The position numbers and the translations under genes are program-made. From a virus (taxonomy: Duplodnaviria; Heunggongvirae; Uroviricota; Caudoviricetes), in the IMG/VR virus record IMGVR_UViG_2698536395_000029: a DNA stretch of 15,001 bases; one strand, given 5' to 3'. This document shows positions 1 to 13,409 of this stretch, piece by piece; position 1 is the stretch's first letter; each line of letters begins with the position of its first letter. The notes below the pieces were generated by a model. That model saw only the letters and a list, made by a program, of their open reading frames with translations. It searched no databases and was not told where the DNA came from.

Positions 1-165
1 ATGGCAAAGCCGATCATCACGCTCAATGGCCTAAAAATCGTCATTATGTTGGGAATGCTGGTCATTATTCTCTGCGGTATCCGTTTTGCCGCCGAGATCA
101 TCGTGCCGTTTATTCTCGCATTATTTATTGCTGTTATATATAACTTATTTCGCATAACACATTGA
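1..165 (+). pseudogene. tqsA: 5' fragment of an AI-2E family transporter gene (TqsA/YdgG-like), interrupted by the inserted element
   Basis: ATG at 1; the first ~45 codons ([45 protein letters not shown]) read like the N-terminal membrane helix of E. coli TqsA as I recall it. After codon 45 the frame enters AT-rich sequence (IYNLFRITH) and stops at 163-165, 54 aa instead of ~340. Identification is from memory, not a search. Confidence 0.5.
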
Positions 166-186
166 TTTAATTAAATAATTAACACC

Positions 187-211
187 GCAAAAAGTGCCAA
201 AAATCGCAAAA
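187..211. promoter_or_regulatory. Phased A-tracts (probable intrinsically bent DNA) in the left arm
   Basis: gcAAAAAgtgccAAAAAtcgcAAAAtg: A4-5 tracts recurring at roughly 10-bp spacing, as in att arms and IHF-bent regions. Confidence 0.4.
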
Positions 212-233
212 TGACTACACCAGTGACTACACC
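212..233. repeat. Tandem direct repeat TGACTACACC x2 (12-bp period); candidate integrase arm-type site
   Basis: Exact 10-mer at 212-221 and 224-233, about 80-100 bp inside the inferred left junction. Confidence 0.5.
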
Positions 234-250
234 GTTCGGTGCACTGTATG

Positions 251-276
251 AAACAACGTGGAACAAATAGACACAA
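251..276 (+). promoter_or_regulatory. Phased hexamer array AAACAA-N4-GAACAA-N4-ACACAA (10-bp period)
   Basis: Hexamers at 251-256, 261-266 and 271-276. The 15-mer AACAACGTGGAACAA (252-266) recurs exactly at 7715-7729. Confidence 0.5.
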
Positions 277-344
277 GAAATATACAGGCGGATCATCTTT
301 CCAGGGGGAAGCACACCAATTCATGAGGGGCGTTAATGTCGATA

Positions 345-356
345 TGGGGATCCCCA
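345..356. repeat. 12-bp perfect palindrome TGGGGATCCCCA
   Basis: Reads identically on both strands. Followed at 361-377 by the inverted repeat CCGGAA-T5-TTCCGG. Confidence 0.6.
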
Positions 357-499
357 CCTACCGGAATTTTTTTCCGGTTAAACGTTAATCAGGCTGGTGG
401 GCTTTACCTGTTCGGTAGGTGTTATGATTATCGTAATACCTTTCCCCCAATGGGGTAAAAGCATCAACCGTAACGAAAGTCGTTATGGTTGCCACTGAT

Positions 500-577
500 A
501 CCCCAAATTTGGGTATCACGAGTAAGCCCCAAAATCTGGGTGTTACTCTTACTACCCAAACTACGGGTAGTTTCCGT
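500..577. repeat. Three tandem ~26-bp units, each a small CCCAAA...GGGT palindrome, ending in a 9-bp stem (AAACTACGG / CCGTAGTTT)
   Basis: Units 500-525 (taccccaaatttgggtatcacgagta), 526-551 (agccccaaaatctgggtgttactctt) and 552-577 (actacccaaactacgggtagtttccg). A related motif cccccaatgggg lies at 445-456. Confidence 0.6.
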
Positions 578-589
578 AGTTTCATGGTC

Positions 590-609
590 GAGTTGCAGAT
601 CTGCAACTC
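590..609. repeat. 20-bp perfect palindrome GAGTTGCAGATCTGCAACTC
   Basis: Exact reverse-complement symmetry centred on AGATCT. Confidence 0.7.
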
Positions 610-863
610 CCCCATTAACCACAGGCGAATTTCCGCCTTCGGTCATTCCTTAATCATCTGCGTAATCATAATGATTATTCAGCAAGCGCAATTTTGCGCT
701 TTGCTTAAAGTTCAGCGAGTTACCGCGCCGACTTCCTCAAATTGAGGTTTCCGAAAATATCAGCGGGTTAGCGATTAAGCTGACCATTAATTAAACTGCG
801 AAAATGTCGTAGTTGTGAGGGGTGTAGCCAACCCATTTTTGGGCCGTCGGGAATATCAACCAG

Positions 864-1145
864 TTACCGCCGCAACCGCTCCGGCTTCTTCCAGTGGTAC
901 GTGATTTTCTCCTTCTCCCGATACAGTTCAACGCGGCGATTGTAGGCCAGCATTTCAAGAACGCGGATCCGTATGTCGCGCATATCCGCATCATTAAGCT
1001 GGATACCATCACGGCGCATCACCTCAGCAACAACACGCGCATAATTTTCGGCTGTCACGCTGTCCGGCTGCGTGGTCTGTTCGTCAGCCTGCTGGCTGAT
1101 TCCAGAGACGCGGCGGATTAATCGCAGTATTTCGGCTTCTGTCAT
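864..1145 (-). CDS. Hypothetical protein (93 aa), last gene of the packaging operon
   Basis: ATG at 1145 preceded by GAGGT; begins 14 nt after the TerL stop on the same strand. No family recognised. Confidence 0.5.
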   Translation of the reverse strand: MTEAEILRLIRRVSGISQQADEQTTQPDSVTAENYARVVAEVMRRDGIQLNDADMRDIRIRVLEMLAYNRRVELYREKEKITYHWKKPERLRR

Positions 1146-1158
1146 GCTGCTGACCTCA

Positions 1159-2820
1159 TTACACCCCGCTAAATTCTTCCAGTTTCTGGCGGTGGCTGTC
1201 GCTTATATCAAAAGCAAAATCCTCATGCTCTGCCTGGAATGTACCAAACGCCATCAGCGCCGCTACGCTCGGGTCTATCTTGTTCGGTGATTTTTTCTTG
1301 TTCGGCTTGATATTGGCGTTCGCGTCACTCTGCATCACGACGTTACTCATCGACCAGGACAACACCGGATCGCCACGATGCACAATCACCCTGCGGTTAA
1401 CAAAAACTTCGAACGATTTCGCCGCCGGACTGAATCTGAGGTAGGTTTGCGGGAACGGCTCCACCTCAAAACCAGCCCCCTGTAATTGCGTCCTGAGATG
1501 CGTGGCGTTCCACGTATCAAAGCCCACCAGCCTGATATTAAATTTCTCCGCATCCTGCATGATGTCATCTCTGATCCGGTCGTAATCAATGCAGTCACCT
1601 GGCGTTGTGCGTATCCAGCCCGCTTTAGCCCACTGGCGATAGACAGCGCGGTTTTTATTGGCGGGGTTCTGTAGCTGGAACTCCGGCAGATAATGACGGG
1701 AAACCAGCATGATATTTTTACCGACCGGAAAGGCATAGCACACGCTGGAAATATCGCTGGTTGATGATAAGTCCAGCCCCGCGTAACACTCCTGCCCGTG
1801 TAAATCTTCCTCCGTGAACGTTCCGGCACACTCAGCCCATGCGCCGTTACCCATCCACGGGGTAGCCCCCTGGCACCAGATATTAAATCGCTTTGTCATC
1901 ATCTCCACCCACTGCGACGGAATACCCCGCGCTTTCTGGATGGTTGAGGCCAGTTTTTCACGATCGACGGAAACATCAATATTAGGGTTCGCCTTTATCC
2001 ACATCGCCGGATCATCAACCTCGTTTTCGTCGTCCAGCTCGTAAATCAGTACAAAAATTGAATCGTTAACCTCTTCGCCGTCCAGGATCTGGCAGCAATA
2101 ATCATAGTGCTGTTTACAGGCTGAAACGACGTTGCTGCCTGATGTGGTAATGGCAAATAACAGCCCTTCGGGACGTGCGCCCATCCCCAGCTCAAGCGCG
2201 GAATAAACGCCGTTATCGGGGTGCAAGTGGTATTCGTCCACGATGGAAAGGCTTGGGTTTGTTCCCTCGATGGTTGCCGCTTTTGCTGCCAGCGGCTTTA
2301 ACAGGCTGTTGCTTTTCGGGTGTATCACCTTATGCGCCTGAATATTCACCCGCCTGCGTAACGGTCGGGATAAAAGGCACATCTGACGCGCATCATCAAA
2401 GACGATCCGCGCCTGGTCACGGCTCACCGCTGCGGTGTAGATATCCTGCTGACCGTTCTCCATAATCAGAAACCAGTTAGCCAGAATCGCGGCGGTCGTG
2501 GATTTCGCATTTTTGCGCGGCACTTCGATAAAGGCGCTCGTGTATTTGCGCCGTCCGGTGGCCTTAACCTTAAAGCCGAGGATGCACGCAAAGGCGAACT
2601 GCTGCCACGGCTCCAGCTCAATGGGTCTGCCACGCATCGGTCCTTTTACGTGCGGGCACACCCTGGAAAAGGCAATAAACCGCTCCACAACCTCACGATC
2701 GAACGTGTAAAGGGGGCTTTTAAGGTCCGAAAAGTACCGTTTAACGGCCTGTTTCAGCCGTTTACAGGCCGGAATTTTGCCCGTTTTTACGTCTTCTGCG
2801 TACTTATTCCAGGCGGTCAA
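1159..2820 (-). CDS. terL: Terminase large subunit (Terminase_1-like ATPase/nuclease)
   Basis: 553 aa; Walker-A-like PRKNAKST near residue 100; size and position after TerS. Start per ORF track is TTG at 2820, overlapping the TerS stop; next in-frame ATG is ~60 codons in, so the exact start is uncertain. Confidence 0.9.
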   Translation of the reverse strand: MTAWNKYAEDVKTGKIPACKRLKQAVKRYFSDLKSPLYTFDREVVERFIAFSRVCPHVKGPMRGRPIELEPWQQFAFACILGFKVKATGRRKYTSAFIEVPRKNAKSTTAAILANWFLIMENGQQDIYTAAVSRDQARIVFDDARQMCLLSRPLRRRVNIQAHKVIHPKSNSLLKPLAAKAATIEGTNPSLSIVDEYHLHPDNGVYSALELGMGARPEGLLFAITTSGSNVVSACKQHYDYCCQILDGEEVNDSIFVLIYELDDENEVDDPAMWIKANPNIDVSVDREKLASTIQKARGIPSQWVEMMTKRFNIWCQGATPWMGNGAWAECAGTFTEEDLHGQECYAGLDLSSTSDISSVCYAFPVGKNIMLVSRHYLPEFQLQNPANKNRAVYRQWAKAGWIRTTPGDCIDYDRIRDDIMQDAEKFNIRLVGFDTWNATHLRTQLQGAGFEVEPFPQTYLRFSPAAKSFEVFVNRRVIVHRGDPVLSWSMSNVVMQSDANANIKPNKKKSPNKIDPSVAALMAFGTFQAEHEDFAFDISDSHRQKLEEFSGV

Positions 2821-11913: not shown

Positions 11914-12145
11914 AACCACCCCCATTTTCACAATCAGCAATCAGGATGGCTTTAGCCTCATTCAGCGCCATATCAGCACTAAGTTGCATAACCGCCAGCG
12001 AATGAGGAACGAAAGCCCCGGCATATTCTGTTTCACTGGTGTCGTGCTTATGCGCCCTGTCAGCAATAACAGAAATATCAATCAGCGCATGCATTAGCGT
12101 TATGATGGCTTCGGCGGCTGCGTCCGGACGGGTGTTATTGCACAT
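11906..12145 (-). CDS. Hypothetical protein (79 aa)
   Basis: ATG at 12145 preceded by CAGGAGG; overlaps the stop of the 68-aa gene. Confidence 0.5.
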   Translation of the reverse strand: MCNNTRPDAAAEAIITLMHALIDISVIADRAHKHDTSETEYAGAFVPHSLAVMQLSADMALNEAKAILIADCENGGGYA

Positions 12146-12341
12146 GGCACACCTCCTGACGAATACGGGCAGCGAATACCATCACGCAGCCAGCCGGAGA
12201 TTGCTGGCGTGCTTCCTGTTCGCTGGTGGCCTCAATGGTAATCACGCGCGGTTGTGCCGTGCTCAGGGCGATAAAACGCCAGATGTATTTATTCAGGTCG
12301 TGCGAGTCCCGCCCTTGCGGGTGTGTGGTATGATTTCTCAT
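12135..12341 (-). CDS. Hypothetical protein (68 aa); first gene of the replication operon, possibly Icd-like
   Basis: ATG at 12341 with GAGGT SD. It is the only plausible part of the 342-aa track ORF; the upstream 274 codons are Cys/Arg/Ser-rich antisense of real plus-strand genes. The motif YIWRFIALS...EARQQ...VFAAR vaguely recalls Icd-like proteins (low confidence). Confidence 0.5.
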   Translation of the reverse strand: MRNHTTHPQGRDSHDLNKYIWRFIALSTAQPRVITIEATSEQEARQQSPAGCVMVFAARIRQEVCHVQ

Positions 12342-12379
12342 AGCTACCTCGATACTTTCGCTATCGTTGGTGGTTAGAA

Positions 12380-12410
12380 GCCCTGCGAGTGGTAACGACA
12401 CTTGCGGGGC
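12380..12410. promoter_or_regulatory. Imperfect 12-bp inverted repeat in the divergent control region
   Basis: GCCCTGCGAGTG-gtaacga-CACTTGCGGGGC (10/12 complementary at DNA level); lies in the 5' leader of the minus-strand operon. Confidence 0.45.
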
Positions 12411-12438
12411 TTTGCATTTATGCACCTTGATAATCTCA

Positions 12439-12474
12439 AGGTGTGGCCCACTATATGCTTTAGGTGTGGCCCAC
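12439..12474. promoter_or_regulatory. Two exact 13-bp direct repeats AGGTGTGGCCCAC (candidate operator) overlapping a sigma70-like promoter
   Basis: Copies at 12439-12451 and 12462-12474, 23 bp apart; TTGATA at 12427-12432 and TATACT at 12506-12511 are plausible promoter hexamers upstream of the gene starting at 12541. Confidence 0.5.
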
Positions 12475-12540
12475 GTCAAGGGTTTTATTTGTGCTTTTTC
12501 TGTGTATACTGTCCCCCACCAATCCAACAGAGGAATAGAA

Positions 12541-12720
12541 ATGGCAACGGGTACAACAAACGCAAAATCACAAGCTCTAAAGGCTCGTGTACCACACGAA
12601 ATAGTAAACGCCATGGAATCAGTGAAAGAATCAGGCGAAAGCACATCACAATTCATCATTGCGTCAATGCAAGGCGAGATCAAACGCCGCCAGCGCCGCA
12701 AGGCCAAAGAATCAGAATAA
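12541..12720 (+). CDS. Small DNA-binding protein, probable ribbon-helix-helix fold (59 aa)
   Basis: ATG at 12541 with AGAGGAA SD. The pattern LKARVPHEIVNAMESVKESGESTSQFIIASMQGEI (strand, helix, G-S/T turn, helix) and a basic tail fit CopG/Arc-type RHH proteins. Confidence 0.55.
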   Translation: MATGTTNAKSQALKARVPHEIVNAMESVKESGESTSQFIIASMQGEIKRRQRRKAKESE

Positions 12721-12762
12721 TCACTATCAGCGCCGTGGTGTGAGGTATTACGGCGCATTGCT

Positions 12763-12951
12763 ATGCAGGACAACACAATGACCGATAAAGAATTGACCAA
12801 AACATTATCACCGGCACGGAAAAGACGGCGCAGAAAGATAGAACATGAATCAGAAAGATTCGCGCCATGTGCTTTTGCCCTTGAGCAATTCCTTAAAGAG
12901 TACAGGGAAAAGCGCTCATTGCAGGTATGGCAACGAACTGAACCAGACTGA
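12763..12951 (+). CDS. Hypothetical basic protein (62 aa; start may be 12778)
   Basis: ORF 43 nt downstream of the RHH gene on the same strand, with a poly-basic stretch ARKRRRRK; the SD is weak, so coding status is uncertain. Confidence 0.4.
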   Translation: MQDNTMTDKELTKTLSPARKRRRRKIEHESERFAPCAFALEQFLKEYREKRSLQVWQRTEPD

Positions 12952-13036
12952 TTGCATTGCCCACCAGCCTGATAGCGGCTATCATCCCCGTGCTTATGTT
13001 TGGGATCACACACACAAACGGCGCAGCGGGTTATCT

Positions 13037-13064
13037 GTTCAGAAAGGCGGCTCCATTTCGGGGC
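13037..13064 (+). terminator. Rho-independent terminator ending the plus-strand RHH operon
   Basis: GCGGCTCC-atttc-GGGGCCGC (8-bp stem with one G-U pair) followed by T7. Confidence 0.75.
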
Positions 13065-13220
13065 CGCTTTTTTTATGCCTGAAAAACCCCAATTTTGTGG
13101 TTTTCCAGTCTCACCAGGGCGAACGAATCCCCGCCCACGTTCTGGCGTATATTCAATCTTCATGGTTATAGCTCTGTGTTCAGATGATTGATGTGTGGCG
13201 GCTGTGTGCCGCCAGCGTGA

Positions 13221-13409
13221 TTAATGAACTGCCTTGCAGCTATCCTTCCAGGCCAGAACCTCGGATAAAGACCAGCCAACGGAACGACCGCCAAGTTTAC
13301 GACGTGATGGGAATTGTCCGGCCTTTTCCAGGCGGTAGCGGCATGAGCGGCTAAGGCCTGTTAGCTTTTCGCATTCTTTTTCACGTATAAACCGATCAGT
13401 GCTTAACAC
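13221..13409 (-). CDS. alpA: AlpA-family transcriptional regulator / excisionase-like HTH protein
   Basis: 62 aa; LTGLSRSCRYRLEKAGQFPSRRKLGGRSVGWSLSEVLAW matches the AlpA signature (TGLSRST.YR....G.FP.P.KLG.R.V.W...EV..W). Start is GTG at 13409 with AAGGGGG SD. Confidence 0.85.
   Translation of the reverse strand: MLSTDRFIREKECEKLTGLSRSCRYRLEKAGQFPSRRKLGGRSVGWSLSEVLAWKDSCKAVH

Follow-up and report, generated by a model that had tools for sequence, protein, structure and literature searches.

Tandem 12-bp repeats as probable integrase arm-type sites in the attachment site of a capsid-forming phage-inducible chromosomal island of Escherichia coli

Near the left end of a 15,001-nt stretch of DNA classed with the Caudoviricetes (IMG/VR record IMGVR_UViG_2698536395_000029; the window hereafter means this whole stretch), a 10-bp sequence stands twice in tandem beside a row of short A-tracts. 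What would such repeats do at this place? From position 138 onward the window is island sequence, belonging to a ~14.6-kb capsid-forming phage-inducible chromosomal island (cf-PICI) within E. coli tqsA (ydgG). An earlier note, made from the letters alone, had proposed a candidate arm site for the integrase (Int). The present analysis supports that proposal through a second copy on the other arm, an arm-binding domain in Int, conservation among relatives and co-variation with Int. Positions 210-233 are thus in all probability two arm-type Int binding sites on the int-distal (P'-like) arm of the attachment site, attP. The support for this role is comparative and structural, and was obtained in silico. 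The features at issue are as follows.

189-211, plus strand: three A-tracts (A5 at 189-193, A5 at 199-203, A4 at 208-211) with starts 10 and 9 bp apart; a possible bend or flanking element.
210-233, plus strand: tandem pair of 12-bp units, AATGACTACACC then AGTGACTACACC; proposed arm-type sites for Int on the int-distal (P'-like) arm.
250-276, plus strand: three phased heptamers, GAAACAA (250-256), GGAACAA (260-266) and GACACAA (270-276); proposed sites for AlpA, a recombination directionality factor (RDF) or activator.

The two exact 10-mers 12 bp apart and the adjoining phased A-tracts are where the earlier note had placed them. The 10-mer TGACTACACC occupies 212-221 and 224-233 of the plus strand, 12 bp from start to start, and the repeat unit proper is 12 bp rather than 10. 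Taken alone, a tandem 10-mer is not significant in 15 kb: at least one exact 10-mer repeated within 30 bp appears in 27% of first-order Markov simulations of that length, and two other loci in the window also hold one. Three phased tracts of four or more A residues arise in ~1.5% of simulations of the 723-bp non-coding stretch. Matches to the 10-mer with up to two mismatches number 19 across the window against 8.3 expected, and are located in coding regions. Other copies with no or one mismatch are absent from the window, save one inverted copy 600 bp off. This single-mismatch copy, TGGCTACACC (821-830, minus strand), lies 34 nt downstream of the stop codon of the open reading frame (ORF) at 864-1145. 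It was rejected as a third arm site, being ~690 bp from the core and having counterparts with two mismatches at the same relative place in the related islands L003 and L004. The pair is far beyond chance because it recurs on the other arm, in a circular attP and at the same position in all relatives examined.

To locate the repeats with respect to the island boundary, the empty site was rebuilt by joining window 1-137 to the sequence past the other copy of the 9-mer TGCTGTTAT. The result is an intact tqsA with 100% identity to the best-matching genomes and at least 80% coverage in 5169 genomes, which fixes the island/chromosome junction at 137/138.

1-137, plus strand: 5' part of chromosomal tqsA (attB left half), a truncated 'pheromone autoinducer 2 transporter' in the annotation of identical genomes; the rebuilt empty site matches.
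129-137: core identity block TGCTGTTAT, present at both junctions and in attB; the same 9-mer lies at 16688-16696 of the source-like genome L002 and occurs as a single copy in the circular contig L049.
13784-15001, minus strand: int, encoding a tyrosine integrase with Arm-DNA-bind_3 as its N-terminal domain; the GTG start codon is annotated ~11 nt past the window end.

Since int sits at the far end of the window, the junction at 137/138 belongs to the int-distal arm, as had been supposed. The TGACTACACC repeats are 75-96 bp inside it, within the 50-100 bp first estimated.

If the pair is an arm site, a related motif is expected on the int-proximal arm, and its absence there had been named as grounds for dropping the idea. 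The motif is present, as an exact 23-mer in the same orientation: TGACTACACCAGTGACTACACCG, at L002 16538-16560, is identical to window 212-234. This proximal pair falls just beyond the window end; 26 nt separate it from the annotated start of int, and 128 bp from the core (arm, L002 16513-16687). Reading away from the GTG codon (L002 16512), the arm consists of the Shine-Dalgarno sequence AGAGGGGG, 12 nt, AGTGACTACACC AGTGACTACACC G, 128 bp and TGCTGTTAT, followed by the 3' part of tqsA. Both pairs are therefore on the arms, inside attP and outside the crossover core, at 74 bp (distal) and 128 bp (proximal) from TGCTGTTAT. Their motif, TGACTACACC, differs from the core half-sites TGATAAAA and ATATATAA.

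A natural attP joins the two arms. A motif scan of IMG/VR returned the metagenomic contig L049, of 11,098 nt, whose 119-nt terminal overlap closes it into a 10,979-bp circle. It carries an uninterrupted attP composed of int, pair, 128 bp, TGCTGTTAT, 74 bp and pair, with the pairs 233 bp apart. Compared with the composite of window and L002, this site has no mismatch in the proximal arm and core, nine in the 55 bp between the core and window position ~200, and none over window 201-291, which holds A-tracts 2 and 3, the pair and the heptamers. This shows that the island sides of both junctions are one contiguous site in the excised or replicating form, and the natural attP thus confirms the junction and core assignment.

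The two arms share more than the pair. They have in common a cassette of ~90 bp made up of the 12-mer pair, a diverged 16-bp linker and three heptamers phased at 10 bp, which on the proximal arm read GCTACAA, GAAACAA and GGAACAA. There, two to three GAAACA-type repeats adjoining the core are added, and the proximal 175 bp between int and core hold the pair and five to six heptamers (heptamer-bearing stretches at L002 16576-16605 and 16648-16675). A homologous cassette of this kind, and the 27% of simulations that contain a tandem 10-mer, might be taken to mean that the arms are alike through historical duplication or as the remnant of a tandem insertion, devoid of present function, and that the 10-mer arose by chance or slippage. 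We regard this as very unlikely. The linker of the cassette has diverged while the 23-mer and heptamers are exact, and the arrangement is wrong for a remnant, as the distal pair is on the island side of a single core. Moreover, the pair is present in the excised circle, and it persists across att sites and across genera with ~50% Int identity, with a concerted change on both arms in one island (L007, below).

The integrase itself is consistent with arm-type sites. Its residues 8-95 match Pfam Arm-DNA-bind_3 (PF13356; E 1.4e-18) and the catalytic domain PF00589 is present. By sequence, its N terminus matches PDB entries 3JTZ and 3RMP (E 1.5e-5). Foldseek comparison of a single-sequence AlphaFold2 (AF2) model (pLDDT 70.8) returned 3JU0, 3JTZ and 3RMP as the only significant matches. 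These are the arm-type binding domains of the HAI7, HPI and 'P4-like' integrases, and the DUF4102 arm-binding domain defines the IntSXT/P4 subgroup of tyrosine recombinases (PMC8138268). Int carries a P4-like arm-binding domain, and arm sites are therefore to be expected.

Is the arrangement kept in islands that use other sites? Relatives are given below with their integration site or source, int identity to the window (nt, DNA; aa, protein), pair and heptamer. The five rows of E. coli islands, that of the window included, were found through int similarity rather than through the motif, and were fetched whole.

Window and L002: tqsA; Int reference; AGTGACTACACC twice; GRAACAA.
L003: phoQ/roxA; 91% nt; ATTRACTACACC twice; GRAACAA.
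L004: smrA/abgR; 81% nt; ATTRACTACACC twice; GRAACAA.
L005 and L006: clpS/cspD; 76% nt; ATTRACTACACC twice; CGAACAA.
L007: thiM/rcnR; 70% nt; AACTGACCACAC twice; CGAACAA.
L009-L011: Kosakonia, Raoultella and Phytobacter; ~54% aa; ACTGACTACAC(C/A) twice; TGAACAA.
L100: viral contig; TTGACTACAC twice; TAAACAA.
L012 and L013: Erwinia and Phytobacter sp. V91; ~50% aa; TGATACACC twice; degenerate A-rich repeats in L012, no AlpA match in L013.

In every E. coli island examined, both arms hold the tandem pair in the same orientation and with its 12-bp period. The distal pair is ~68-76 bp from the identity block (counted from coordinates) and the proximal pair ~128 bp from the core across islands, in a near-gapless alignment. 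The relatives from other genera carry a pair of 12-bp period ~25 nt upstream of int, and the Kosakonia-type pair occurs in both int-proximal and distal contexts among viral contigs. Each genuine island context holds exactly two units; wherever both arms were captured both carry the pair, and L007 has its own, different pair on both. Scanning genome contigs with the Int alignment yielded only six loci, their distal arms lying beyond the fetched 10 kb, and few proximal arms were gained from the Int-selected viral contigs, most of which end at the int start. Motif matches in L081, L036, L088, L097, L079 and others were discarded as coding low-complexity repeats of unrelated viruses. The pattern TRACTACACCNNTRACTACAC also matches long tandem arrays of unrelated contigs, some of them from giant viruses, where it is a coding repeat of Pro/Val/Thr type with no relation to att sites.

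The same comparison bears on a possible role in packaging (cos/pac or recognition by the small terminase subunit, TerS) or in replication (iterons), given that the repeats are at the end of the island that carries the terminase genes, in a long non-coding stretch ~930 bp downstream of terL. Of the explanations considered this seems the least likely, a very long shot. The same pair also stands next to int, and classical PICIs whose packaging module is different (L003-L005) have it too; the cos site of classical PICIs is upstream of rpp (PMC9026076). Only two copies stand at each island end, and the primase gene is far away. At the clpS/cspD site, classical L005 and capsid-forming L006 have the same arms, pair included, despite their different packaging modules. 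L005 encodes capsid, decoration and an rpp-type 'TerS', L006 its own terminase, portal and HNH protein, and the two have near-identical int, alpA and both arms; recombination module and packaging module have therefore been swapped as units.

Position and spacing are thus conserved while the sequence of the pair varies. The variation follows the Int arm-binding domain, over some four to five motif classes of non-independent sequences:

Int N-domain of window type, ..SVKYLTSGKLTWYFTYR: unit AG-TGACTACACC.
Int N-domain ..SVRHSTSGLLTWYFTYR: unit AT-TRACTACACC.
Int N-domain of L007, ..EIKHSKGGKLTWYFRYR: unit TGACCACAC.
Int N-domain ..SW(V/I)FSYR: unit TGATACACC.

The window Int (KYL..K) goes with AG-TGAC, whereas RHS..L goes with AT-TAAC, and in L007, where Int reads GLEIKHSKGG..FRYR, both arms have TGACCACAC. 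The residues that distinguish the classes (annotated 36-38, 42 and 48) lie in strands 2-3 and their turn in the AF2 model. In the arm-binding domains of lambda and Tn916 this sheet enters the major groove; by analogy, it may do the same here.

The heptamers vary too, but with another protein. The gene for this protein lies next to int:

13221-13409, minus strand: alpA, 62 aa (Pfam Phage_AlpA, E 5e-18; also so annotated).

Its recognition-helix classes pair with heptamers as follows:

AlpA helix ..CRYRLEK: GRAACAA, 59 of 67 arms matching.
AlpA helix ..TRYE(L/M)EK: CGAACAA, 13 of 14.
AlpA helix ..TRY(M/L)MEK: TGAACAA, 6 of 9.
AlpA helix ..TRYQLEK: TAAACAA, 1 of 1.

The first bases of the heptamer track the residue after 'RY' in the AlpA recognition helix (R, E, M or Q), and no cross-class case was found over all loci with both features, though these include redundant sequences. 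Linkage cannot explain the match, because alpA and the heptamers are on opposite sides of int and its pair, and 14 kb separate the distal arm from int. Three natural swaps tell the two systems apart. L003 and L004 (AlpA ..CRYRLEK) have the same Int class and pair, ATTRACTACACC, as L005 and L006 (..TRYELEK) but a different AlpA and heptamer, whereas L005 and L006 share AlpA and heptamer with L007 but differ from it in Int and pair. In L047, whose AlpA is of RYELEK type, a mosaic distal arm has an upstream flank like that of smrA-type islands together with CGAACAA heptamers.

These swaps also bear on whether the 12-mer pair could instead be bound by AlpA or another small helix-turn-helix (HTH) protein, with the Int arm sites elsewhere, for example in the RAACAA heptamers. 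Winged-helix proteins of AlpA/Xis type generally recognize direct repeats arranged head to tail at intervals of about one helical turn, five cooperative TorI sites are known in KplE1 attL (PMC3509656), and the pair adjoins the int start, where an activator could act. However, the pair does not track the AlpA recognition helix: it is unchanged across two AlpA classes, which have ATTRACTACACC in common, and changes within one, as L005 and L006 compared with L007 show. The heptamers partition perfectly with AlpA class and are therefore the better AlpA candidate. On balance we consider this alternative improbable, though it is the strongest of those weighed here.

A further possibility, about as improbable, is that the pair is mainly a transcriptional operator, serving Int autoregulation or an island repressor of int, and that the distal copy is a duplicate irrelevant to recombination. 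The proximal pair is indeed 12 nt upstream of the int Shine-Dalgarno sequence, and an arm site in KplE1 lets IntS repress its own promoter (PMC2951348). Yet the distal copy is preserved exactly in each of the six E. coli islands and also in the circular attP, always ~70-75 bp from the core, and in L007 it changes in concert with the proximal one. No consensus promoter was found in scans of the arms: sigma-70 and terminator scans of both gave no int promoter, and no sigma-70 promoter was found near the proximal pair. An operator role is in any case compatible with an arm-site role, not exclusive of it.

Candidate elements in and around the core are the following.

121-128: B-type half-site TTATTTAT, in the 5' part of tqsA.
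136-143: putative core-type Int half-site C' (ATATATAA), which the alignments suggest is the imperfect inverted partner of the conserved int-proximal TGATAAAA.
155-167, minus strand: putative site for integration host factor (IHF), an exact consensus (AATCAATGTGTTA = WATCAANNNNTTR) from a consensus scan; it adjoins the A+T-rich 165-180 and lies between core and pair.

The core here reads TGATAAAA / TGCTGTT / ATATATAA. We infer that TGCTGTT (129-135) is the 7-bp overlap in which strands are exchanged, because the L003 core is a perfect inverted repeat around such an interval, TGATAAAA / TATGTCC / TTTTATCA. The proximal side of the core is kept in all six islands (..AACACTAnnTGATAAA..) and the crossover sequences differ. 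Integrases 70-91% identical at the DNA level go with the crossovers TGCTGTT, TATGTCC, TCACGAT, AACTATC and ACGGGTA-like, with a constant proximal half-site TGATAAA(A/T) (compared at window 121-143, L003 6195-6210 and 17397-17411, and the cores of L004, L005 and L007). It looks as if the family retargets by changing the overlap and the distal half-site.

The earlier note had also placed bending-protein sites on this arm, and here the outcome is mixed. The putative IHF site has the exact consensus, an A+T-rich flank and a location between core and arm sites, and it is conserved in arm sequences read by eye, being exact in L003 and L049 and having one mismatch in L004 and L007; it is recognized by consensus alone. 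Among the A-tracts, only the middle one (199-203) is invariant in six distal arms, and a part for these tracts in bending is conceivable at best.

From these elements we infer how the site may work. The N-terminal domain of the P4-like Int would bind each 12-bp unit (core TGACTACAC), and two side-by-side units per arm, 12 bp apart, would provide 2 + 2 sites for the four Int protomers of the recombination complex. IHF at 155-167, possibly together with the A-tracts, would fold the distal arm back, and the fold would let the catalytic domains of arm-bound Int reach TGATAAAA / TGCTGTT / ATATATAA. The phased RAACAA heptamers of the two arms are most likely bound by AlpA, which would bias the reaction to excision, activate int transcription, or both. 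Finally, with 12 nt between the proximal pair and the int Shine-Dalgarno sequence, Int bound to that pair might repress its own gene as in KplE1.

Several points weigh against reading 210-233 in this way. The arm-site assignment rests on comparative genomics, and confidence in the AF2 model is only moderate (pLDDT 70.8). Co-variation was seen over ~4-5 sequence classes that are phylogenetically related. With the proximal pair 26 nt from int, linkage could account for part of it, though not for the distal pair 14 kb away. One set of viral contigs was selected by the motif itself and so cannot measure its conservation. Two of the three A-tracts are unconserved, and autoregulation through the proximal pair stays a conjecture, drawn by analogy, because no sigma-70 promoter was detected there.

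A more speculative extension, which we hold only tentatively and think somewhat doubtful, is that attP consists of two copies of one composite cassette in the same orientation, one per arm, each with two Int sites, the 16-bp linker and three AlpA heptamers. Its Int and AlpA parts would have been exchanged independently (L047, L003-L006, L005-L007), and AlpA would act on both arms. The distal cassette, which would face int only after circularization, might then provide a second, excision-dependent control of int. RDF-type sites on both arms would be unusual.

The proposed layout resembles that of known sites. On the lambda P' arm, the H' IHF site is followed by P'1-P'3, to which a heterobivalent tyrosine integrase binds through its N-terminal domain. 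The PICI arm has the same order of core, IHF site and tandem arm-type repeats about one helical turn apart, with further arm sites on the other arm. Unlike lambda, it has two sites per arm that are identical on both arms, in one orientation and at 12-bp spacing. The arm-binding domain is of DUF4102/P4 type, and int is transcribed away from attP with its start 26 nt from the proximal pair. The attP of P2, 186 and HP1 type has two direct arm repeats on each arm flanking the core, 2 + 2 as here, but belongs with the IntP2 subgroup, a Cox-type RDF and different motifs.

In KplE1/HK620, arm-type Int sites and several RDF sites fill the region upstream of int, which is negatively autoregulated (PMC2951348, PMC3509656). 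As in that system (IntS, TorI), the 5' end of the PICI int abuts the attachment site and its upstream region is packed with candidate sites. The integrase, RDF and motifs differ, and the heptamer array is on both arms, in contrast to the one-armed RDF arrays of lambda and KplE1. With P4 and the P4-like island integrases (HPI, HAI7; 3JTZ, 3JU0, 3RMP), the PICI shares the arm-binding fold and Pfam family, a small HTH partner of AlpA/Vis type and a satellite or island lifestyle. Identity in this domain is only ~27-34%, and the comparison is one of domains and not of arm-site sequences. Whereas P4-like elements use tRNA 3' ends, these PICIs target protein-coding or intergenic sites with identity blocks of 9-14 bp.

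The remainder of the window fits the island type. All island genes are on the minus strand. From the right end they are int, alpA, an Icd-like gene with small ORFs, a D5-type primase, SSB and PerC. The capsid module is next (HK97-type major capsid protein, prohead protease, portal, head closure and head-tail connector), and after it come an HNH endonuclease, P27-family TerS, the large terminase subunit (TerL) and the conserved 93-aa ORF at 864-1145. No tail or lysis genes were found in the island, by annotation of identical records and Pfam. A length of ~15 kb, int, alpA, primase, capsid and packaging genes of its own and a site unused by prophages identify it, from its genes alone, as a cf-PICI, and the published family of EcCIEDL933 type has a matching gene set (bioRxiv 10.1101/2022.09.08.507074).

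The target gene tqsA is listed among those that integrative elements interrupt (PMC7192596). Here it is split after codon ~45, its reading frame meets a stop at 163-165 (window 1-165) and the 3' part is not restored in frame; tqsA is inactivated in island carriers. At least 80% of window 1-1200, the region spanning the int-distal junction, is covered in 196 complete E. coli genomes. In a junction that is 97.8% identical (H5/L210), all 27 differences fall in the 93-aa ORF. E. coli strain 20.1 is nearly identical to the window, with a 1-nt length difference (15,001 nt against 15,000 aligned bases of NZ_AP027170.1). The gene terL (window 1159-2820) is frameshifted in that record and its 553-aa ORF is intact in the window, which suggests that the difference lies in terL and that the window derives from a different assembly or an indel error is present in the record. 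A 342-aa ORF (12135-13163, minus strand) spans the short Icd-like gene and a truncated 'hypothetical protein' of the identical record. It has no Pfam match; L004 encodes a 470-aa Icd-like protein in its place.

Other elements occupy the non-coding DNA that separates the att arm from the 93-aa ORF. Four strong hairpins cluster at 445-625, with RNA fold z-scores of -8.5 (plus strand) and -8.9 (minus strand) against 200 shuffles. The cluster belongs to no Rfam family, and a scan of the entire window at gathering thresholds gave no Rfam match. A sub-module at 492-614 shows 92-100% conservation among PICIs of different Int classes, both classical and capsid-forming, its few changes being mostly in loops. 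The cluster was rejected as a cos site, given that the classical PICI cos is upstream of rpp. Three copies of an 18-mer (AATATCAGCGGGTTAGCG-like, 78-100% identity) lie at 708-725, 756-773 and 852-869, spaced 48 and 96 bp apart, just downstream of or overlapping the end of ORF 864-1145, in a region partly shared with the classical PICI L003.

A full-text literature search for the motif strings returned no relevant paper, and no description of these arm motifs was found in the searchable literature, where accounts of these islands stop at att core sequences and attB sites; for cf-PICIs, the family paper lists no more than the attB sites in use (bioRxiv 10.1101/2022.09.08.507074). Arm sites are an ordinary, expected part of such an attP, so far undescribed for this family and no surprise to a specialist, and the general understanding of site-specific recombination is unchanged. 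What is gained is a concrete site map for satellites widespread in E. coli and other enterobacteria, classical PICIs and cf-PICIs alike, comprising the core, a probable 7-bp overlap, half-sites, an IHF site, four arm sites and candidate AlpA sites. It could help in the design of orthogonal integration systems from these islands, and the natural swaps of motif and protein offer a handle on how arm-binding specificity and directionality are encoded and exchanged.

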